DNA of 64,000 nucleotides, from the NCBI RefSeq assembly GCF_963921235.1, contig NC_086097.1:6696001-6760000 (forward strand). Direction: 5' to 3'. Positions within the stretch are counted from its first letter, which is position 1. Each line of letters starts with the position of its first letter. The stretch is from Mobula hypostoma. Taxonomy: Eukaryota. Of the stretch, positions 28,724-56,022 are shown piece by piece. A model generated the notes under the pieces. It did not search any database. It had not been told where the DNA came from and saw only the letters and a program-made list of their open reading frames with translations. The position numbers and the translations under genes are program-made.

Positions 28724-29831
28724 CAAACAACAGGAATTCTGCAGATGCTGGAAATTCAAGCAACACACATAAAAGTTGCTGGTGAACGCAGCAGGCCAGG
28801 CAGCATCTCTAGGAAGAGGTGCAGTCGACGTTTCAGGCTGAGACCCTTCGTCAGGACTAACTGAAGGAAGAGTGAGTAAGGGATTTGAAAGTTGGAGGGG
28901 GAGGGGGAGATCCAAAATGATAGGAGAAGACAGGAGGGGGAGAGATGGAGCCAAGAGCTGGACAGGTGATAGGCAAAAGGGATACGAGAGGATCATGGGA
29001 CAGGAGGTCCGGGAAGAAAGACGGGGTGGGGGGGGGGGCACCCAGAGGATGGGCAAGGGGTATATTCAGAGGGACAGAGGGAAAAAAAGGAGAGTGAGAG
29101 AAAGAATGTGTGTATAAAAATAAGTAACAGATGGGGTACGAGGGGGAGGTGGGGCATTAGCGGAAGTTAGAGAAGTCGATGTTCATGCCATCAGGTTGGA
29201 GGCTACCCAGATGGAACATAAGGTGTTGTTCCTCCAACCTGAGTGTGGCTTCATCTTTACAGTAGAGGAGGCCGTGGATAGACATGTCAGAATGGGAATG
29301 GGATGTGGAATTAAAATGTGTGGCCACTGGGATATCCTGCTTTCTCTGGCGGACAGAACGTAGGTGTTCAGCAAAGCGGTCTCCTAGTCTGCGTCGGGTC
29401 TCGCCAATGTATGAAAGGCCACATTGGGAGCACCGGACACAGTATATCACTCCAGCCGACTCACAGGTGAAGTGTTGCCTCACCTGGAAGGACTGTTTGG
29501 GGCCCTGAATGGTGGTAAGGGAGGAAGTGTAAGGGCATGTGTAGCACTTGTTCCACTTACACAGATAAGTGCCAGGAGGGAGATCAGTGGGGAGGGATGG
29601 GGGGGACGAATGGACAAGGGAGTCGCGTAGGGAGCAATCCCTGCGGAATGCAGGGGAGGGGGGAGGGAAAGATGTGCTTCGTGGTGGGATCCCGTTGGAG
29701 CTGGCGGAAGTTACGGAGAATAATATGTTGGACCTGGAGGCTGGTGGGGTGGTAGGTGAGGACCAGGGGAACCCTATTCCTAGTGGGGTGGCAGGGGGAT
29801 GGAGTGAGAGCAGATGTACGTGAAATGGGGG
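28724..29831 (-). mobile_element. 5'-truncated Penelope-like element with intact GIY-YIG frame and hammerhead; 17-bp TSD
   Basis: ORF 29157-29483 GVIYCVRC..YIGETRRRLGDRFAEH..GMNIDF; TSD AGATGACTACTAATGCT at 28707-28723 and 29832-29848. Confidence 0.92.
28823..28858 (-). ncRNA. Minimal type-I hammerhead ribozyme (intact core)
   Basis: Minus strand AGUC-CUGACGA-AGG(GUCUCAG)CCU-GAAACGUC-GACU: core boxes, stem II, stem I AGUC/GACU and a GUC cleavage triplet. Confidence 0.8.
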
Positions 29832-30409
29832 AGATGACTACTAATGCTGCTATATTTAATTTTCTTACACTCTACCCATCTTGATCATCTGTTCCTGCTC
29901 TGCCTTTTATCTTGTGCCCTATCACATGTGCTTACGCTTGTCAGCCATCCAACATTTCTTGTGGGACTTGGACTTCTGGCTTATCTGACTGTTCTAGAAC
30001 TAAATATATCTCATTTCATAGCTGTGCTCTCAGGGTAGGCTCGTAAGGTGCACAAGTAATCTATTCTCTGAGGAGGGAGTCCTTCAAATATGAGAAACTG
30101 CAGTTATCAACTCGCAGGCTTGGCTCCATCAAGGAAGTATCAAAAAATCTCCCTGGTCCTGACTAGGAGAACAGACTGAGCAAGAGTTCATTGAATCATT
30201 TCAAGATAAGTTGCAATGCAAATTCTAGTGATCTTGTTTGAAAGCTCTATGGAATGGTAAAGTTATCTATCCCTGTGGCTAGTAAGATATATTATTTTTG
30301 CTGGCTCTGGTTTATTCTGTATAACCATCTCTAAACTTCGGGTAAAGTTTTCTCTTTATTCTATCACCCCTTACATGGTGAAACGAAGTGATATAGGAGA
30401 CAACAAAGT

Positions 30410-35265: not shown

Positions 35266-35397
35266 TCAGTCCTGACAAAGGGTCTCGGCCCGAAACGTTG
35301 ACTGTACCTCTTCCTAGAGGTGCTGCCTGGCCTGCTGCGTTCACCAGCAACTTTTATGTGTGTTGCTTGAAATTCCAGCATCTGCAGATTTCCTCGT
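35266..35397 (+). mobile_element. 132-bp ORF-less Penelope terminal-repeat insertion with hammerhead; 14-bp TSD
   Basis: TSD GGCTGGATCATTTG at 35252-35265 and 35398-35411; hammerhead at 35268-35303 with CTGACAA (core G>A) and GAAACGTT. Confidence 0.88.
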
Positions 35398-39272: not shown

Positions 39273-41961
39273 TCCCTACTTAGAGGATTACATCCCTTCT
39301 TCTGTCTCCAACACTTCTCTTCTTGGACAACCTGCTCTGGTTCTCTGCCTGCTCTGAATCTTTTCATCTTCTAATTGCCAACGAGACTTCAACTGAAGCA
39401 CTTAAGAATTCCTCTCTCCTCCTCAAACCATACCCCGCCCCTCGAACACACTGTCCTCCATTCTCTCCACACCAATCCAAACCATACCATCAAACCTGCA
39501 GACATAGGGGCTACTATTGTAGTGTGGCAGACAGACCTCTACCTTGCTGAGAAGCGGTAACTCTCAGACACCTCTTCATACCTCCTTGTAGAGGATCTTG
39601 CTCCGCACCATCAGACAACCATCTCTGACACCATCACTGACCTCTCCAACTTTGGAGAAATTCAATCCACTGCCACAAAACTCATTGTTCCTTTACTCCA
39701 GACTGCTTGCTTCTATCTCCTACCCAAGATCGACAAACCTGACTGTCCAGCCATGCCTAATGTCTCTGCCTGCTCCTGTCCTACTGAATTCTTGTCCTCA
39801 AACCTCAGTTCCATTCTATTCCCATTGGCTCAGTCCCTTCCTACCTATATCCATGACATTTCTCATGTTCTCGATCTCCTCAACAACTTAAATTCCCTGG
39901 CCCTTAACACCAGATTTTCAACATGGATGTCCAGTCCTTATCCACTTCTATCCCCCATCAAGAAGGCCTTAAAGCTCTCTGCTTCTTTCCCAATAAAAGT
40001 ACCAACCATTTCCCCTCCACTACCACCCTCCTCCATCTGATAAAACAGGTCTTCACACTGAACAATTTTTCCTTCAGCTCCTCCTAATTTCTCCAGACTC
40101 AAGGAGTAGGGCTGGGCAGCTTCATGGGCCCCAGCTATGCCTGTCTCTTCATTAGCTATGTAGAACAGTCCCTGTTCAAAGATTTCCCCAGTAATATGTC
40201 CCAGTTGTTCCGTTGCTACATTGATGACTGCATTGGTGCTGCTTCATGCACCCATGCTGAGGTCGTCAATTTCATCAGCTTTGCCTCCATCTTCCACCCT
40301 GCCCTTAACTTCATTTGGTCCATTTCTGACACTTCCCTCCATTTTCTTGATCTCTCTGTCTGTACTAACTGTCAACCAACATCTTTTCTAAATCTACCGA
40401 TTCACATGGTTATCTTGACTACATCTCTTCCCACCCTGTCTCTTAAAAAATGCTATTTCCTTTACTCATTTTCCTCATCTCTGCCCACATCCGTCCCCAG
40501 GATGTAGCTTTCCTTTCTAGGACATCAGAGAAGTTCTCCTTCTTCAAAGAATGAAGTTTCCCTTCCTCCACCATTGATGCTGACCTCATCTACTAGTCAT
40601 CTATTTCCCAGATGTCTGTGATCGCCCCATCTTCCCGTTGCCTCAACAGTGATGGAGTTTATCTTGACCTTACCTTCCATTCCATGAAAGTCTGCATCCA
40701 ACACATCTTTCCCTGCAACTTTTGCCATCTCTAAAGTGATTCTATGAGCAAACATGGCTTTTCGTCCCCTGTCTCCCTTTGCTTTCTGCACAGATCACTC
40801 CTTCCATGATTCCCTTGTCCATTTGTCCCTCCCCACTTACTTCCCACCCGGAACTTATCCTTGCAAGCAAACAAATGCTACACCTTTCCATTCACCTCCC
40901 CCTTCACCTCCATTCAGGGTCCCAAAGTGTCTTTCCAGGGGAAGCAACATTTCATCTGCAAACCTGCTGAGGTCATCTATTATGTCCTGCCTCCTCTACA
41001 ATGGCAAGACCTGAAGTAAATTGGGTGACTGCTGCATCGACCACCTCCATTCTATCCACTAAAAGTGGAACTTCCCGGTGGCCAAACATATTAATACTGG
41101 TTCCCATTCCCTTTCCAACATGCCAGTCCATGGCCTCCTCTTGTGCCATGGTGAGGCCACCCTCAAGAAGGAGGAGCAACACCTTCTATTCCATCTGAGT
41201 AGCCTCCAAACTAATGGCATGAATATTGATTTCTCCTTCCAGTTAAAAAAATCCCTCCTCCTTCCTCTTCTATTCCCCACTCTGGCCTCTTACCTCTTCT
41301 CTCCTGCCAAACATTTCCCCTGGGTAAACTCCTCCCTCCGTTTCTCCCATTGTCCACTCTCCTCTTCTATCAGATTCTTTCCTCTTAAGTCTTTTAACTT
41401 TCTCACCCACCTGGCTTCATCTATAACCTTCAAGCTATTCTCCCTGCCTCTCTCTACTTTTTAATCTGGTGTTTTCCACATTGCGTTCCAGTCTTGATGC
41501 GGGTACGTGGCCAAGTGGTTAAGGCATTGGACTAGCGACCTGAAGGTCGTGAGTTCAAGCCCCAGCCGAGACAATGTGTTGTGTCCTCGAGCAAGGCACT
41601 TAATCACACATTGCTCTGCGATGACACTGGTGCCAAGCTGTATGGGTCCTAATGCCCATCCCTTGGACAACACTGGTGTAATGGAGAGGGGAGATTTGCA
41701 GCATATGCTGATCTTCCATACAACCTTGCCCAGGTCTGCGCCCTGGAGAGTGAAGACTTTCCAGGCACAGATCCATGGTCTTGCAAGACTAACGGATGTC
41801 TTTATTTATTTATTATTCCAGTCCTGATGAAGGGTCTTGGCCTGAAACCTAGACTGTTTATTCATTTCCACAGACACTGCCTGACCTACAGAGTTACTGA
41901 GTTCCTCCAGCACTTGGTGTGTGTTACTCTGGATTTCCAGCATCTGCAGAATTTCTCATGT
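39273..41961 (+). mobile_element. Long degenerate Penelope-like element inserted in the L2
   Basis: TIKPADIGATIVVW, MGPSYACLF..YIDDCIG, GIY-YIG remnant and terminal repeat; decayed TSD tataggattactta (~39259) / tataggatcaccta (~41962). Confidence 0.85.
41500..41815 (+). mobile_element. tRNA-derived SINE with 14-bp TSD, inserted at a PLE hammerhead
   Basis: A box TGGCCAAGTGG (41508-41518), B box GTTCAAGCC (41553-41561), (ttta)n tail; TSD TTCCAGTCYTGATG at 41486-41499 and 41816-41829. Confidence 0.88.
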
Positions 41962-44139: not shown

Positions 44140-44236
44140 CACACATAAAAGTTGCTGGTGAACACAGCAGGCCAGGCAGCATCTCTAGGAAGAGGTGCAG
44201 TCGACGTTTCAGGCCGAGACCCTTCGTCAGGACTAA
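44140..44236 (-). mobile_element. 97-bp ORF-less Penelope terminal-repeat insertion; 15-bp TSD
   Basis: TSD CTGTTTAGTAGCCTT at 44125-44139 and 44237-44251; nearly identical to about 28765-28863. Confidence 0.9.
44199..44234 (-). ncRNA. Minimal type-I hammerhead ribozyme (intact core)
   Basis: Minus strand AGUC-CUGACGA-AGG(GUCUCGG)CCU-GAAACGUC-GACU. Confidence 0.8.
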
Positions 44237-47584: not shown

Positions 47585-48784
47585 CACTTCCTCCAAACTA
47601 AAGGTGTAGCTATGGGCACCCATATGGGTCCTAGCTATGCCTGCCTTTTTGTTGAGTTTGTGGAACAATCTATGTTCCGTGCCTATTCTGGTATCTGTCC
47701 CCCACTTTTCCTTCACTACATCGACGACTGCATTGGCGCTGCTTCCTGCACGCATGCAGAGCTCGTTGACTTTATTAACTTTGCCTCCAACTTTCACCCT
47801 GCCCTCAAGTTTACCTGGTCCATTTCCGACACCTCCCTCCCCTTTCTAGATCTTTCTGTCTCTGTCCCTAGAGACAGCTTATCCACTGATGTCTACTATA
47901 AGCCTACTGACTCTCACAGCTACCGGGACTATTCCTCTTCTCACCCTGTCTCTTGCAAAAACGCCATCCCCTTCTCGCAATTCCTCCGTCTCTGCCGCAT
48001 CTGCTCTCAGGATGAGGCTTTTCATTCTAGGACGAGGGAGATGTCTTCCTTTTTTAAAGAAAGGGGCTTCCCTTCCTCCACTATCAACTCTGCTCTTAAA
48101 CGCATCTCCCCCATTTTACGTACATCTGCTGTCACTCCATCCTTCCGCCACCCCACTAGGAATAGGGTTCCCCTGGTCCTCACCTACCACCCCACCAGCC
48201 TCCGGGTCCAACATATTATTCTCTGTAACTTCCGCCAACTCCAACGGGATCCCACCACTAAGCACATCTTTCCCTCCCCCACTCTCGCTGCATTCCACAG
48301 GGATCGCTCCCTACGCAACTCCCTTGTCCATTCGTCCCCCCCATCCCTTCCCACTGATCTCCCTCCTGGCACTTATCCGTGTAAGCGGAACAAGTGCTAC
48401 ACATGCCCTTACACTTCCTCCCTTACCACCATTCAGGGCCCCAAACAGTCCTTCCAGGTGAGGCAACACTTCACCTGTGAGTCGACTGGAGTGATATACT
48501 GCGTCCGGTGCTCCTGATGTGGCCTTCTATATATTGGCGAGACCCGACGCAGACTGGGAGACCGCTTTGCTGAACATCTACGCTCTGTCCGCCAGAGAAA
48601 GCAGGATCTCCCAGTGGCCACACATTTTAATTCCACATCCCATTCCCATTCTGACATGTCTATCCACGGCCTCCTCTACTGTAAAGATGAAGCCACACTC
48701 AGGTTGGAGGAACAACACCCTATATTCCATCTGGGTAACCTCCAACCTGATGGCATGAACATCGACTTCTCTAACTTCCGCTAA
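47585..48784 (+). pseudogene. PLE RT-GIY-YIG reading frame with one nonsense codon (TGA 48515-48517)
   Basis: ORF 47612-48517 continues in frame after the TGA as CGLLYIGETRRRLGDRFAEH..GMNIDFSNFR* to 48784. Confidence 0.88.
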
Positions 48785-49081
48785 GGCCCCACCTCCCCCT
48801 CGTACCCCATCTGTTACTTATTTTTATGCACACATTCTTTCTCTCACTCTCCTTTTTCTCCCTCTGTCCCTCTGACTATACCCCTTGCCCATCCTCTGGG
48901 TCCCCCCCCGCCGCTTGTCTTTCTTCCTGGACCTCCTGTCCCATGATCCTCTCGTATCCCCTTTTACCCATCACTTGTCCAGCTCTTGGCTCCATCCCTC
49001 CCCGTCCTGTCTTCTCCTATCATTTTGGATCTCCCCCTCCCCCTCCCACTTTCAAATCCCTTACTCACTCTTCCTTCAGTT

Positions 49082-49117
49082 AGTCCTGACGAAGGGTCTC
49101 GGCCTGAAACATTGACT
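49082..49117 (+). ncRNA. Hammerhead ribozyme motif with CpG-decayed stem III
   Basis: AGUC-CUGACGA-AGG(GUCUCGG)CCU-GAAACAUU-GACU (CGTCG changed to CATTG). Confidence 0.65.
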
Positions 49118-50624
49118 GCGCCTCTTCCTATAGATGCTGCCTGGCCTGCTGCGTTCACCAGCAACTTTGATGTGTGTTGCTTGAATTTCCAGCATCTGCA
49201 GAATTCCTGTTGTTTTTGTTGATGACATTTAAATGGCAGCTTTGGTAGCTGTTGAGCCTTGGAGACAGATATTTATCAACTGGCAAAGACATTCTGAGAG
49301 TGTGGCGGTCGCCTCCTCTGGCAGAGGTTCTGCGCTGCCCGGGGCCATACTCAAGATCAGGAGCTGTGATCCCAGTGGAAGACCGGCCAACAAATGTGCG
49401 GCAAAATTACTCTCTCCAGCATAAGTGAGAGATCCCATACCACTGCCTTCAAGGACCTTTCTGGACTCACTTTCAAGGATTCTTCATGTCACGTTCTCAA
49501 TATTTATTGCTTATTTATTTATTTATTTTTAATTTGCACGGTTATTTGTCTTTTGCACATTGGTTGTTTGTTCTTTTTCTGTGTATGGTCTTTCATTGAT
49601 TCTATGTTATTTCTTTGTATTTACTGTGAATGCCTGCAAGAAAATGAATCTCAGGGCTCTATGTGGTGGCATATATGCACTTTGATAATAAATTTACTTT
49701 GAACCTTGAACTTTGAACTTTAAGGATCTCTTTGAATGATCCAAATGTGAACCTTGGCCTCCACAACCTTGAGTTTCCTTCTTCCCAGAACCTCTGGAAT
49801 TCCCTTCACAGAGCCGTTTCATCTTCTTGTTGGCCAGGACTGGTAGAAAAGCTGGACAGGATGAGTTGCTTTGGGAATGAACTCAATAATGCTCATATCA
49901 AGTAAGTATTTCATGGTACCTATGTGTCTATGTACTTGTTCATACAGTGTGTGCTGATTATTGAAAGGTCTAGACAGGATGGACGTAGTCAGAATATTCA
50001 ATGGCTCAATTTAATATCAGATAACATATAGACAGTATACAAACTGAAATTCCTACTCTCCGCGGACATAAACAAAAGAGAAAAAAATCCAAAGAATGAA
50101 TGACAGAAATTGCCAGAACCCAAAAGCCCCCGACCCCTCCCACACACAAGCAGCAGTAAAAGCATCAACCCTCCCCCTCCCCTCCACCTCTCCCCCCACA
50201 TGCTCCAGCAAAAGCATGAAGCCTCCACTACCCACCATGCCAACAATTGCAAAGTATCAAATAATGGAAGAGTCTAGGACCACAAACATATTCTCAGAAT
50301 AAAAGAATGTCCCTTTGGAACATATATAAGGTGGAATTACTTAGCCAGAGGGTGGTCAATGTGTGGAATTTATGTGTGGAATGCGTGGAGGCTAAACCAT
50401 TGGATACATTTAAGGACTTGAAGGGCCAAATGGCCTTATTCTGGTCCTATGTCTTGTGGACTTACAAGGAGCCCTTCAGTTGCTTCTTACAGACAATACT
50501 GATCATGACTTTATCCTTGATAAGCTCACCTCAGTTCTTGGCTCTTGGCTATTTAGTGCCTTGTTAGTTTGGGTAATAAATGATCTCGGAGAAGCTGAAG
50601 AACCTTCATGTGTCGTGGTTGACC

Positions 50625-52480: not shown

Positions 52481-53544
52481 CTTGGCTTCCTGTGCTCTTT
52501 CACTCACCATCTGTTCTTTAGATTTAGGTTTTCTACAGGGCATCAGCCTTCATGTTACCACGGCGGCTCCTTTATCTCTTGAAACACAATAGAGTTTCAA
52601 TCTTTGAAGTTAATTAGCTCTTGGATCTTCTGGTTAAACTAGTCCTGATAGTGAAACCAATAATCTCTTTACAGCTGCCAATTAAATTGGACTTCAATGT
52701 GACTGCACTCTAAAGACACCTGGCTGCTTCCATTGACAGGGAGTTGACAGACTGTCAATAAGGTGTTATCTGAAAATAACTACCTTTGTAGTTCAATTTC
52801 AAGATCAAGTTCAAGTTTATTGACAACTGACAGTACGTATATACAGCCAAACAAAACAATGTTTCTCCAGATGACAGTGCTCCCACAATACATCTATCAC
52901 ACACAACACATAAACTAAGATATTACCGTAAATGACCAAATAAAATATCTTTCAAAGTGCATGTGAAGTGCACAGTGCAGGTAAACTGGAAACAGCATCC
53001 CAGGGCGAGTACTCAGGATGTGCTTGGCATAGCTGGGAGGTGTGTTTACAGACAGTTTTAATCCTCCCTCTCCCTGTGTAGAGGTCCCTCCTGCTTCAAA
53101 ACATCCACCATTGTCCCTGCACCTAAATAGACCAAGGTAATGACTGGCATCCTGTTGCAGTCACCTCAATAATAAACAAACGCTTTGAGAGGCTGATCAA
53201 AGACTAAATCTGCAGAATGCTACAACCCACCCAGGACCCTCTATGATTCGCCTACTAACACAACCGATTGACAGACAACACAAGAGCCACTGCTCTACAC
53301 ACCATCCTTACACATCTGGATAAGAGAGATGCTTCTGTGAGAATGCTGTTCTTGGACTACAGTTCAGCATTCAACACCATAATTCCCTCCAGGCTTGACA
53401 AGAAGCTCAGAGACCTTGGCCTTCACCTTGCCTTGTGTAGCTGGATCCTGGACTTCAGGATCCAGATCACCGGCAGGTGGTAAGAGTGGGCTCCCTCACC
53501 TCCAACCCCTATAACTCTCAATAAAGGAGCTCCTCAGGGCTGCA

Positions 53545-53767
53545 ACAACAGGAATTCTGCAAATGCTGGAAATTCAAGCAACACACATCAAAGTTGCTGG
53601 TGAACGCAGCAGGCCAGGCAGCATCTGTAGGAAGAGGTGCAGTCGACGTTTCAGGCTGAGACCCTTCGTCAGGACTTGATGAAGGGTCTCGGCCTGAAAC
53701 GTCGACTGCACCTCTTCCTACAGATGCTGCCTGGCCTGCTGCGTTCACCAGCAACTTTGATGTGTAT
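53545..53767. mobile_element. Head-to-head Penelope terminal-repeat dimer with hammerhead motifs on both strands; 14-bp TSD
   Basis: Arms 53583-53671 and 53677-53765 are reverse complements (2 mismatches seen in 89 bp) with spacer GGACT; TSD TCCTCAGGGCTGCA at 53531-53544 and 53768-53781. Confidence 0.92.
53641..53676 (-). ncRNA. Minimal type-I hammerhead ribozyme (intact core)
   Basis: Minus strand AGUC-CUGACGA-AGG(GUCUCAG)CCU-GAAACGUC-GACU. Confidence 0.8.
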
Positions 53768-55104
53768 TCCTCAGGGCTGCATACTGAGTTCCCTCCTTTA
53801 CTCCTTGTATACCCATGATTGTGTCACCACCCACAGCTCCAATCTGCTAATTAGATTTGCTGATGACACTACACTGATTGCCCTCATCTCAAATAATAAT
53901 GAGGCAGCCTACGGAGAGGAAGTCATCACCCTGACACGGTGGTGTCAAGAAAACAACCTCTCCCTCAACGTCGCAAAAACAAAGGAACTGATTGTGGATT
54001 ACAGGAGGAATGGAGACCAGTTTATCCCTATATACTTTATACTTTATTGTCGCCAAACAATTGATACTAGAATGTACAATTATCACAGCAATATTTGATT
54101 CTGCGCTTCCCGCTCCCTGGATTACAAATATTAAATAGTAAAATATTAATATTTATAAAATATTAATATTAATATACATCAATGGACCTGGGGTTGAGAG
54201 GGTGAACAGCTTCAATTTCCTCAGCATAAACATCAGCGAGGATTGCCTGTGGTCTGTACATACTGGCTGCGTAGTGAAAAAGGCACAATAGCGCCTCTTT
54301 CACCTCAGATGGTTAAAGAAGTTAGGTATGGCCCCCCAAATTCTAAGAACTTTCTATAGGGGCACGATTGAAAGCATCTTGTCTGGCTGCATCAGTGCCT
54401 GGTATGGGAACTGTATTTCCCTCAATCGCAGGACTCCGCAGAGAGTGGTGCAGACAGTCCAGCACAGATGTAGATTCTGTTCAGGACATTTACAGAGACA
54501 GGTGTGTAAAGTGGGCCCCTAAGGATCACTGGGGACCCAAGTCACCCCAGCCACAAACTGTTCCAGCTGCTACCATCCGGGAAATAATTCCGCAGCATAA
54601 AAGCCAGGACCAACAGACTCCAGGACAGCTTTTTCCACCAGGCCATCAGACTGATTAATTCATACTGACGCAACTGTATTTCTATGTTGTATCCTGTTGT
54701 ACATTATTAATTACTACAGTATAATTGCACATTGCACATTTGAATGGAGACATAATGTAAAGATTTTTACTGCTCATGTATATGAAGGATGTGAGTAATA
54801 ATAAAGTCAATAAAGTCTATAAAGTCAGTAAACAGCTTGCCGTTCTAGTGTTGAGACCTCGATGGTGACAGGGTATCCATTAGTCTCACAGTCTGAGGGA
54901 AGAAACTGTTACCCAGTCTGGCAATCCTGGTCTGGATGCTCCTGGACCTCATGCCAGACAGGCAGGCTTATTCCTAATGCTCCTATACTTCCTTCCTGAT
55001 GGTAGTGTGTCAAAGAGATTGTGGGGTAGGTGGTAGGGCCCCTGGAGAGTCCTTAAGAGCTTCAGCAGTGTTATTATTCCTATAACTTTTCTCTTCACTC
55101 AATC

Positions 55105-56022
55105 CTGGAACACCTGAAGACCAAACATAAATACATCAAGATGTTCCTTGTCAACTACAGCTCAGCATTCAATACTAACATCCCCTCAAAACTAATCAAT
55201 AAGCTCCAAGACCTAATACCACTGTGAAACAGGATCCTCAATTTCCTTTTACAGACCCCAGTCAGTTCATCTCCTCCAAAATCACATCAGCACAGGTGCA
55301 ACACAAGATTTGTGCTTAGCCTCCTAAGGCTCGTTTTCACTTATGACTGTGAGCCTAAGTACATCTCTACTGCCATATTCCAGTTTACCGATTGTTATAG
55401 GCTGAATCAAAGGTGGTGATGAATCACCATACAGGAGGGCGACTGAGAGTCTGGTGGAATGGGGCCATAGCAACAACCTGTCACTCAATGTCAACAAAAC
55501 CAAAGAGAATGCAGGAGGAGGAAACCAAAAGTCCATGAGCCAGTCCTGGACAGGGGATCAGAGGTGGAGAGAGTCTGCAACTTTAAATTGCTCAGTGTTA
55601 TCATTTCACAGGGTCTATCCTGGATCCAGCACGTAAGGAGACACCAATGCCCTTGAACAGAAAAACCTTCAAAAAGTAGTAGATGCAGCCCAGTCCAACA
55701 CGGATAAAGCCCTTCCCAGTACTGAGCACCAGCAGGGAAAACTTTCCTCACCCCATCACTAAACTGATTCCACAATCTATCACTTTTAAGGACTCTGGAA
55801 TTTGTGTTCTCAATAGTTATTGCTTTTTTTTTGCATTTCCACTGTCGTTGTCTAATGCACATTGACCATTTGTCAGTCTCTATTGTCTGCGGCTTTTCAT
55901 TAGTTCTGTTACATTTCCTAGTATTTACTGCAAATGCGGACAAGAAAATGAATGTCAGAGTTTTATATGATGATATATATGTTTGTATTTTGATAATAAT
56001 TAACTTTGGACTTTTGAACTTT
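55105..56022 (+). mobile_element. Deleted, degenerate Rex1/Babar LINE
   Basis: MFLVNYSSAFNT codons, EWGHSNNLSLNVNKTKE, T-rich UTR ending in tttgaacttt. Confidence 0.75.

Follow-up and report, generated by a model that had tools for sequence, protein, structure and literature searches.

A Short Palindromic Insertion within a Decayed LINE Is a Product of One Insertion by an Abundant Penelope-Like Element

Introduction

Penelope-like elements (PLEs) are, to our knowledge, the least understood class of retrotransposons. The hallmarks of canonical endonuclease-bearing PLE insertions were reportedly set out by Evgen'ev and Arkhipova in 2005. Inverted and ORF-less insertions are also associated with other systems. 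L1 twin priming, as reportedly described by Ostertag and Kazazian in 2001, yields insertions in which a single target-site duplication (TSD) encloses a 5' piece that is inverted and a 3' piece in direct orientation, with microhomology at the junction, while animal non-LTR retrozymes are said to have been described by Cervera and de la Pena in 2020.

According to excerpts of Craig et al. (2021, PMC8557442), insertions of endonuclease-bearing (EN+) PLEs are recognized by 5' truncation, pseudo-LTRs (pLTRs), a hammerhead in the pLTR, TSDs of variable length, an adjacent inverted 5'-truncated copy at the 5' end, and a 30- to 40-bp tail at one end. Excerpts of Cervera and de la Pena (2014, PMC4209133) describe the minimal hammerheads of metazoan PLEs as having a type I core, a stem II preceded by an unpaired base, a helix I of 4 to 5 bp, no real helix III, and an ACGU palindrome at positions 15.2 to 16.2; they also note pairs of motifs on opposite strands 100 to 700 bp apart. 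Retrozymes appear, in part of a recent preprint (bioRxiv 10.64898/2026.07.22.740005), as short ORF-less hammerhead units that are PLE derived or PLE mobilized. Biochemically, the protein of a PLE from Anolis, Poseidon of Anolis carolinensis (PAc), cleaves and extends both target strands in vitro, and reverse transcription begins at two adjacent internal sites, such that the tail corresponds to the sequence separating the two; complete insertions were not reconstituted in that work (Frangieh et al. 2024, PMC11167929). Our literature search returned no mechanistic PLE paper later than this one and no paper that ties PLEs to twin priming or snap-back.

Here, we analyzed a 223-bp palindromic insert within a 64-kb stretch of DNA (the window). 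Like the canonical PLE insertions outlined in the excerpts above, it consists of a direct copy with a one-sided tail and an inverted truncated copy. Since this arrangement has already been published as a hallmark of PLEs, the novelty implied by an earlier, sequence-only reading of the locus was overstated. What differs from the canonical form, as far as those excerpts describe it, is that both copies are cut to ~90 to 130 nt, leaving just the hammerhead-to-tail module, that they are joined at the 5' edge of the hammerhead, and that this minimal form alone is found at least 4,585 times in the genome.

Results

The insert occupies positions 53545 to 53767, contains no ORF, and lies between perfect 14-bp TSDs (TCCTCAGGGCTGCA; copy 1 at 53531 to 53544 and copy 2 at 53768 to 53781, 100% identical to each other). 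Its two 89-nt arms (53583 to 53671 and 53677 to 53765) differ at positions 53657 and 53668, each in a CpG context, and a repeat search lengthened both arms to 95 nt at 96% identity. The direct, tailed arm (53545 to 53676, minus strand) covers the 3' part of the PLE, beginning with the 5' strand of helix I and running through the tail (approximately reference [ref] positions 382 to 514) and is 97.7% identical to a canonical PLE copy at 28726 to 28858. It includes the 5-nt center, or loop (53672 to 53676; AGTCC on the minus strand), and a 38-nt tail (GTTGCTTGAATTTCCAGCATTTGCAGAATTCCTGTTGT; 53545 to 53582, minus strand) that is restricted to this arm and for which no significant stem-loop was predicted (z = -0.40). 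The inverted, tail-less arm (53677 to 53767, plus strand; ~ref 388 to 478) ends at the second, tail-less 3' end of the family, and the two arms meet in a blunt join (TCA followed by AGTCC). The sequence-only reading, which had described the 223-bp insert, 14-bp TSDs, 89-nt arms, two CpG-type mismatches, and 5-nt spacer, was thus correct in each of these features.

The insert splits a decayed LINE-type reverse transcriptase (RT) frame with in-frame stops (53259 to 54095, plus strand). The flanks read in one shared frame, ...LNKGAPQGC before the insert and ILSSLLY... after it, the insert plus one TSD measures 237 bp (3 x 79 bp), and Pfam RVT_1 matched the host on both sides (E = 6.7e-09 downstream and 0.0042 upstream). 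The earlier reading had placed the insert in the GAPQGC motif of a Rex1 RT; beyond RVT_1, the Rex1 assignment is putative. All eight paralogs of the host LINE that were fetched contained a single, unbroken ...CCCCTCAGGGCTG..., i.e., an empty site with the TSD sequence present once. Together with the perfect TSDs, these sites confirm that a single integration event occurred within one TSD. They also bear on whether the palindrome could have been built by a pair of separate PLE insertions, or by replication template switching that later duplicated a simple insertion in inverted orientation at the DNA level. Head-to-head neighbors that lack an enclosing TSD do exist (L114 and L115, 3.4 kb apart, both tailed), but here one TSD pair encloses the whole palindrome, and one enclosing TSD of at least 9 bp was likewise present in 38 of 42 unbiased loci. 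Moreover, among the first 100 hammerhead motifs listed, pairs less than 4 kb apart were in the (-,+) orientation 18 times, compared with two (+,-) and two tandem pairs. We therefore consider such a two-step origin extremely unlikely.

Given that palindromes are easily misassembled, that no listed sequencing-run contig spanned the whole stretch, and that contigs were short in the repeat, an assembly artifact was also weighed. Exact contigs of run X1 (53481 to 53571 and 53744 to 53804) nevertheless cross both insert boundaries, although this run is possibly the assembly's own sample and the contigs overlap by less than 31 nt on one side each. Against an artifact, too, are the thousands of similarly built loci with unique flanks and TSDs, which leave misassembly with a negligible probability. 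The palindrome is real, and a very abundant PLE produced it in the ordinary course of one insertion.

Full-length copies of the parent PLE are organized as pLTR-ORF-pLTR, with an ORF of 1043 amino acids in the copy L098. In this ORF, RVT_1 (residues 534 to 696, E = 2.8e-05) is followed by GIY-YIG (residues 946 to 1020, E = 0.0011), although both matches fall under the Pfam curated cutoffs (24.4 versus 29.6 bits and 19.7 versus 22.6 bits, respectively). The nearest Atlas clusters to the ORF carry RVT_1 plus GIY-YIG; a phmmer search of PDB with the ORF and a Pfam search of two ORF fragments in the 64-kb window returned no match at E ≤ 0.01. Both L098 and L099 repeat the 3' region (ref 1/48 to 516) upstream of the ORF as pseudo-LTRs, and the 3' end includes a 35-nt tail as well as the minimal hammerhead. 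The arms of the insert are 96 to 98% identical to this autonomous PLE 3' end, which, by sequence similarity, identifies the insert as an insertion product of an autonomous EN+ PLE and upholds the Penelope origin suggested earlier. The arms thus being a PLE 3' end, and TSD lengths ranging from 7 to 18 bp rather than being fixed, a MITE or other TIR-type DNA transposon was rejected. Four other copies of the family were annotated in the window: two 5'-truncated parent copies, one with RT and GIY-YIG frames, hammerhead, and tail (47585 to 49215, plus strand) and one at 28725 to 29836 (minus strand) that is 95% identical to 48103 to 49215; a short, simple copy with a tail, beginning at the edge of the hammerhead (35266 to 35397, plus strand; 14-bp TSDs, GGCTGGATCATTTG); and a simple short tail-less copy (TTAGTCC...ATGTGTG; 44140 to 44236, minus strand; 15-bp TSDs).

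The hammerhead motif of the insert lies on the minus strand (53641 to 53676). Read by eye, it is a minimal type I motif with a complete core and a 4-bp helix I, AGUC-CUGACGA-stem II-GAAA-CGUC/GACU from 53676 to 53641, with predicted cleavage between 53645 and 53644; it has the CUGANGA ... GAAA ... UH pattern closed by helix I. The plus-strand copy (53672 to 53707) is degenerate (UUGAUGA, with U for C at core position 3) and lacks the AGUC partner of helix I; it thus departs from this pattern and is expected to be inactive. Seven matches to the 23-nt core motif were counted in the 64-kb window, versus 0 in 100 shuffles. Rfam hammerhead models gave no match at the gathering score in the whole window and none at an E value of ≤10 in 53400 to 53900, where the only matches were subthreshold ones to microRNA (miRNA) precursors that are attributable to the hairpin shape, and folding one copy at minimum energy did not yield the ribozyme shape (z = 0.64). 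Since no Rfam hammerhead model matched, the assignment of a putative minimal PLE-type hammerhead to the minus strand stands on motif features only. The earlier description of a complete minus-strand motif and a clipped plus-strand copy therefore held at the level of the motif and went unmatched at the level of the models, and it was correct in placing the point of inversion where the hammerhead core has its 5' edge.

Genome-wide, 4,585 head-to-head junctions at the hammerhead 5' edge were counted, compared with 1 in the control; copies that carry a hammerhead number roughly 70,000. Only 32 of the 4,585 have the junction of the 53545-to-53767 insert, and many distinct junction sequences were present among the matches listed (100 of 9,170 strand-wise, ~50 loci). 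Each of 30 full-length matches had its own flanks and its own TSDs, and the GC content of the TSDs was 0.34, versus 0.42 for the window. In 38 unbiased copies, arms differed by 5.9% between copies but by 2.6% (median, 1.3%) within a copy; within copies, arms agreed at subfamily sites (11/12, 17/20, 16/18, and 17/20) and disagreed at CpG sites. Because both arms of any one copy match each other at positions diagnostic of subfamily, these sequence comparisons show that the palindrome is made anew at each insertion. The sequence-only reading had proposed to distinguish a self-propagating family (one junction shared by copies with different TSDs) from a per-insertion mechanism (unique junctions), and the diversity of junctions pointed to the latter.

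A self-propagating, nonautonomous palindromic family would instead descend from a master hairpin whose 223-nt transcript is retrotransposed as a whole. The 40 of 40 scored genome matches that span nearly all 223 bp at 90 to 98% identity would fit such a family, as would the same junction in 15 of 30 aligned copies (32 genome-wide), but the 40-match set is biased by the query, and the unbiased junctions are diverse. Copies with the same junction carry at least three arm haplotypes in which both arms are altered together, and identical haplotypes are found in single-arm and full-length PLE copies. A master hairpin would also transmit its arm differences unaltered, whereas the arms of unbiased copies agree at subfamily sites. 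With neither one inherited junction nor the arm differences of a master observed, a SINE-like palindrome was rejected, and we regard this origin as very unlikely.

The outer ends of the palindromes fall at two discrete positions, ref 510 to 523 for one arm and ref 471 to 484 for the other, in 35 of 38 TSD-bearing loci. A tailed end was paired with a tail-less end in 57 of 59 classified head-to-head insertions, relative to ~49% expected if ends were chosen independently (P ~1.5e-15). The tail was one-sided in 42 of 49 unbiased loci, the other 7 being not orientable under strict scoring, and the pairing was kept by all six long head-to-head pairs with TSDs. The exceptions were L039, apparently tailed on both arms (its TSD is unchecked), and L082, an old copy that is tail-less on both. 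Simple tail-less insertions terminate at ref 477 to 488, as inverted arms do. At the center, the tail-less arm reached further 5' by at least 5 nt in 15 of 42 loci, the tailed arm did so in 11, and the two were within 4 nt in 16 (these differences were also checked by eye). Sequence ends therefore show that each event yields one tail and that either arm may be the longer at the center.

Since tailed and tail-less ends are paired and either arm can carry the extra central sequence, priming on both target strands is favored, from these end positions, over a simple snap-back of the cDNA. In a snap-back, a tail-primed cDNA would reach the hammerhead edge, fold by microhomology, and copy its own sequence; copying would halt ~35 nt before the cDNA 5' end because the tail is still held by protein. 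Such hairpin-primed second-strand synthesis is classical RT behavior. In its favor, the arms are identical at birth, and inverted microhomology is seen at recurrent junctions among the ~50 listed loci (CTTC[GTC]CTGACG in 5 and CTTC[GT]TAGTCC in 4); CCTTCAG, upstream of helix I, is moreover partly complementary to the hammerhead core. However, the 15 of 42 tail-less arms with extra central sequence contain at least 5 nt of canonical upstream sequence that is missing from the tailed arm, and they were therefore not copied from it. Nor does a snap-back give a reason for the inverted arm to halt exactly where simple tail-less insertions end. Overall, we consider it unlikely, if less so than the other alternatives. 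The proposal of one integration event, made in the sequence-only reading, is accordingly retained, with the short template RNA that it invoked being putative. Of the two mechanisms that it offered, fold-back and twin priming, plain fold-back fits the ends and the central reach less well than does priming on both strands.

Discussion

The reading that we consider probable is that both target strands prime reverse transcription from two RNA start sites in one integration event, and that the resulting cDNAs are joined head to head. The PLE protein would nick the target with a stagger of ~13 to 15 bp, which gives the TSD, and both nicked 3' ends would prime reverse transcription on the same kind of PLE RNA. 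The outer start site would produce the arm with a 35- to 38-nt tail, and the inner site, ~35 nt upstream, the tail-less arm. Both cDNAs would halt just past the hammerhead, and their 3' ends would then join, bluntly at this locus and often by 2 to 5 nt of microhomology elsewhere, to leave an ORF-less 223-bp palindrome. Priming on both strands, a single RNA as template, and the succession of steps are inferred. If two polymerases moved in file along one RNA and no 3' flaps were trimmed, a tail-less arm that is shorter at the center than its partner would never be expected, yet 11 of 42 loci have one.

These features parallel those of PAc, for which cleavage and extension of both strands, RT initiation at a pair of adjacent internal sites, and a tail between these sites were likewise reported (PMC11167929). 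Measured from the beginning of stem II, the start site in PAc is 111 to 118 nt away, and the tailed ends here are ~116 to 129 nt away, in each case on the 3' side; target sites lean toward AT in both. In the PAc work, however, neither start site had a strand preference, whereas genomic copies here use one site per end. In L1 twin priming, by comparison, the two pieces derive from adjacent, nonoverlapping parts of the RNA; both arms here cover ~ref 388 to 478, forming a true palindrome, and an L1-type product was rejected. Retrozymes, as described in part of the preprint cited above, share with the 223-bp insert a short, ORF-less hammerhead build and a link to PLEs, but they are head-to-tail tandems that can form circular RNAs, whereas the insert is an inverted pair with a predicted hairpin. 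An animal retrozyme was rejected given that the two motifs lie on opposite strands. Self-cleavage of the hammerhead was also rejected as the origin of template 5' ends: arms begin at ref 371 to 392, predicted cleavage is at ~ref 415, and only two inverted arms (L122 and L126) start ~3 nt past the predicted site. A polypyrimidine-AG and a TCAGTT are present at ref 371 to 390, shortly before helix I.

A further possibility, to which we give slightly less than even weight, is that PLEs integrate in vivo through a concerted, two-ended reaction in which one ribonucleoprotein (RNP) initiates reverse transcription at both start sites of a single RNA, with one site serving each nicked strand. If so, this RNP could be the predicted dimer, and the concerted reaction would jointly explain why the tail is one-sided, why copies lie head to head, and why their arms are identical. 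The hammerhead 5' edge would then be a preferred stop or exit, and the thousands of 220-bp hairpin loci would be abortive products. The thousands of young, TSD-bounded head-to-head insertions of this family are a natural record of the final steps of integration, and the one-tail-per-event rule, with either arm longer at the center, places in vivo constraints on the two-start-site, both-strand findings made in vitro.

Taken alone, the locus is an unremarkable transposon scar within a dead LINE, and no function of the palindrome has been demonstrated. A transcript that spans it is predicted to form a ~90-bp hairpin that would sequester the ribozyme, and thousands of near-perfect ~90-bp hairpin loci, if transcribed, could supply double-stranded RNA pathways (Dicer and ADAR). 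Published PLE hammerheads, in the portions of the literature consulted, require a dimer or protein. The motif in the insert resembles those in the excerpts of PMC4209133 in its core, unpaired base, short helix I, lack of a real helix III, and ACGU. It differs from those described there in being undetected by Rfam and in its 10.1-11.1 pair, which is G.U in the main family and G-C in variants. By eye, stem II reads A-GGGU(CUCR)GCCU, with an unpaired 5' base and the 10.1-11.1 pair, and the palindromic ACGU lies at 15.2 to 16.2. The two forms of the 10.1-11.1 pair stem from a T/C polymorphism at ref 406.

A PLE palindrome in a LINE reading frame

The 223-bp insert (window 53545-53767) joins two ends of a Penelope-like element (PLE) head to head, with a tailed arm on the minus strand (53545-53676) and a tail-less arm on the plus strand (53677-53767). 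Read on the minus strand, it is the final 132 nt of the PLE, beginning at helix I (5' strand) and running through the tail, preceded by an inverted 91-nt copy that lacks the last 38 nt. The target site duplication (TSD) proposed by the sequence-only reading was confirmed, as TCCTCAGGGCTGCA is found at 53531-53544 and again at 53768-53781, and its 89-nt arms (53583-53671 and 53677-53765) were recovered, separated by a 5-nt centre and with 2 mismatches that are both CpG transitions; a repeat finder gave longer arms, of 95 nt, with 96% identity. The split reverse transcriptase (RT) frame was likewise found, with a single reading frame spanning both flanks (...LNKGAPQGC / ILSSLLY...) and a Pfam RVT_1 match on each side of the insert. 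Paralogs of the host LINE number in the thousands (8,884 candidates, 40 scored, 8 fetched), and all 8 fetched copies, which serve as paralogous stand-ins for the empty site, are uninterrupted and carry the duplicated sequence once. The insert is almost certainly a single-event PLE insertion. Since it is 96-98% identical to its own PLE family, while the host copy (window 52500-55200) has decayed, carries several in-frame stops, and is only 84-90% identical to its paralogs, the insert is much younger than its host.

As the sequence-only reading anticipated, the insert as RNA is predicted to fold into a single long hairpin (-191.6 kcal/mol, z -26.6). Several miRNA-precursor Rfam models matched this hairpin (window 53604-53746) below threshold, mir-3926 reaching 49 bits relative to a gathering score of 82; these matches reflect generic hairpin likeness and are no evidence for a miRNA gene.

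At the motif level, the minus strand carries the claimed hammerhead, reading AGUC, CUGACGA, an unpaired A, stem II, GAAA, CGUC, and then GACU. Stem II has 4 bp (G.U, G-C, G-C, U.G), and position 11.1 is polymorphic (T/C, exchanging G.U and G-C). Minimal PLE hammerheads, as described in passages of Cervera and de la Pena (2014, PMC4209133), have the same traits: helix I is short, an additional base precedes stem II, there is no true helix III, and positions 15.2-16.2 are palindromic. The plus-strand hammerhead is clipped, as had been described, with U at core position 3 and the helix I partner missing. Because no Rfam hammerhead model matched, either in the whole window at gathering score or in 53400-53900 at E<=10, and the minimum-energy structure of one copy lacks the ribozyme, we call the hammerhead at the motif level only.

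The parent PLE family

Five further copies of the same module occur as single arms elsewhere in the window, and two of these five (29836-28725 and 48103-49215; 95% mutual identity) are 1.1-kb PLE pieces whose frames show YIDD-type RT and GIY-YIG-like motifs. Full-length genomic copies have a pLTR-ORF-pLTR structure, in which a 1043-aa open frame lies between repeats of the 3' region. The frame matches RVT_1 and then GIY-YIG, both under the Pfam curated cut-offs, and this predicted order is the one that defines endonuclease-bearing PLEs; the nearest protein-atlas clusters also have RVT_1 and GIY-YIG. The family is very abundant: a 310-aa piece gave 149,518 first-look candidates, and a 20-nt hammerhead motif had 70,391 exact matches genome-wide.

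In two loci, L098 (G000:C1:81665000-81674500) and L099 (G000:C45:16367500-16377000), the 1043-aa frame flanked by pseudo-LTRs remains open from one stop to the next. Identity to such an open-frame PLE copy is 98-100% in some palindromic copies, and in one (L064) both arms are 100% identical. These sequences suggest recent activity of the family.

Simple short copies that start at the hammerhead edge represent each of the family's two 3' ends in the window, one tail-less with 15-bp TSDs (44140-44236, minus strand) and one tailed with 14-bp TSDs (35266-35397, plus strand). Also present are PLE copies from families that are older or different, at 71-82% identity (window 41832-41854 and the 36755 and 55830 regions; loci L035, L056, L066, and L109), and these have only the hammerhead-to-tail module in common. 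Their stem II varies in sequence (e.g., GGGUUCCGGCCC and GGGUGUCGGUCC) while its pairing is kept, which suggests that this module is under constraint.

Nearly all classified head-to-head copies carry one tailed and one tail-less arm

Our unbiased sample consisted of the 49 junction loci that come first on contig C1, excluding the window's own locus. Under strict scoring, 42 of the 49 could be oriented, with one arm tailed and the other tail-less; the remaining 7 either are old (66-78% identity) or have no pair. TSDs measured 13-15 bp in 30 of these 42 loci (range, 0-18), with a mean GC content of 0.34, compared with 0.42 in the window. In the 38 loci with TSDs of at least 9 bp, the median length was 224.5 bp, tailed ends fell at ref 510-523 (positions along the parent PLE 3' region), and tail-less ends fell at ref 471-484 in 35. 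The 223-bp insert is thus an example of the modal form.

The rule extends to other configurations. Twenty "single" motif matches included 5 asymmetric pairs, each with one tailed and one tail-less arm (in L118, the second arm ends early, at ref 439); the same held for 3 pairs with a junction slightly further upstream and for 6/6 pairs with a common TSD and motifs 351-3,248 bp apart. Overall, 57 of 59 classified head-to-head insertions were tailed plus tail-less, the exceptions being L039 and L082. Given that 18 simple insertions comprised 10 tailed and 8 tail-less copies, independent ends would yield only ~49% mixed pairs (P ~1.5e-15). Among the first 100 hammerhead-motif matches listed, 18 (-,+) pairs lay within 4 kb, including 10 at 100 nt or less, and there were 2 (+,-) and 2 tandem pairs within 4 kb; head-to-head orientation is strongly favoured.

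Among long pairs, only L114/L115 (G000:C1:396881-400955) seems to break the one-tail rule: its two PLE copies, both long and tailed, face each other 3.4 kb apart with no common TSD. These are probably two separate insertions, or else a rearranged event.

Palindromes are made anew at each insertion

When the genome was searched with the insert, all 40 scored matches (of 1,047 candidates) spanned nearly all 223 bp at 90-98% identity, a result that, taken alone, resembles a self-propagating palindromic family. The 30 fetched matches all had distinct flanks and their own TSDs. An unbiased pattern (10 nt either side of the centre, gap of 0-30 nt) detected 4,585 head-to-head junctions genome-wide, versus 1 for the reversed control, and the insert's exact junction occurred 32 times genome-wide. 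Many different junction sequences were present among the pattern matches listed (~50 loci), pointing to the per-insertion mechanism that the sequence-only reading had considered. Recurrent junctions among the matches listed use microhomology, e.g., CTTC[GTC]CTGACG and CTTC[GT]TAGTCC.

A palindromic master would be expected to transmit arm differences unchanged. In contrast, a 30-copy alignment showed left-arm subfamily-diagnostic bases mirrored in the right arm, and in 38 copies of the unbiased sample, arms differed by 2.6% within a copy (median, 1.3%) versus 5.9% between copies. At four subfamily sites, the arms of copies with the non-major base were concordant in 11/12, 17/20, 16/18, and 17/20 cases. 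CpG sites were concordant in just 0/6, 0/6, and 2/8 copies, as expected from decay after insertion. The same haplotypes also occur in single-arm and full-length PLE copies. Since junctions are diverse, arms change together, and haplotypes are common to these other copies, we conclude that the palindrome is made anew per insertion.

Proposed priming of the two arms

This kind of insertion is already known; what sets the Mobula case apart is its extreme miniaturisation, its copy number, and a clean quantitative one-tail rule. The observed architecture agrees with two published descriptions. Passages of Craig et al. (2021, PMC8557442) describe an inverted 5'-truncated copy as often adjoining the 5' end of PLE insertions and a 30- to 40-bp tail as often present at one end only. 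Purified PLE protein of Anolis, a predicted dimer, cleaves and extends both target strands; reverse transcription starts from two adjacent internal RNA sites, the tail being the sequence between them, and ribozyme cleavage is dispensable for insertion (Frangieh et al. 2024, PMC11167929). Our literature search found no later mechanistic PLE paper and no work connecting PLEs to twin priming or snap-back. The distance from the stem II start to the tailed end is ~116-129 nt in the Mobula element versus 111-118 nt in PAc, the Poseidon PLE of Anolis carolinensis. In vitro, no strand preference was observed for either PAc start site (Frangieh et al. 2024, PMC11167929), whereas the genomic ends here are nearly always different.

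The simplest reading of these sequences, which we consider moderately probable, is two-ended priming: each target strand would prime one cDNA, one from each RNA start site, and the 3' ends of the two cDNAs would then be joined. Its main rival, snap-back of one cDNA, seems unlikely, as it forbids sequence in the inverted arm that the tailed arm is without. The tail-less arm nonetheless extends further 5' by at least 5 nt in 15 of the 42 loci (the tailed arm does so in 11), an excess verified by eye in L051, L056, and L086, and the inverted arm ends exactly where simple tail-less insertions do. The sequence-only reading had left fold-back and twin priming side by side; the longer tail-less arms and the end positions favour priming on both strands and disfavour plain fold-back.

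cDNA ends at the 5' edge of the hammerhead

In both simple short copies and inverted pairs, cDNA ends cluster just beyond the hammerhead, at ref 371-392; the simple copies concerned are 6 of 20 singles plus two copies in the window. We rejected ribozyme cleavage as the cause of this stop, since the predicted cleavage site lies near ref 415.

Directly 5' of helix I, CTCACTCTTCCTTCAG is followed by TTAG (window 49070-49090; ref about 365-379, and the same place in other copies). This sequence is a polypyrimidine tract with a terminal AG and contains TCAGTT, and both short-copy 5' ends and inversion junctions cluster there. For Drosophila virilis Penelope, a passage of Cervera and de la Pena (2014, PMC4209133) places an intron end at the 5' boundary of helix I. 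The ref 365-379 site could be an RNA 5' end, a splice acceptor, or a polymerase stop. At L122 (G000:C1:856665-857284) and L126 (1199501-1200120), the sole hint of a self-cleaved template and, as two cases, perhaps chance, the inverted arm begins ~3 nt beyond the predicted cleavage site, at ref about 418.
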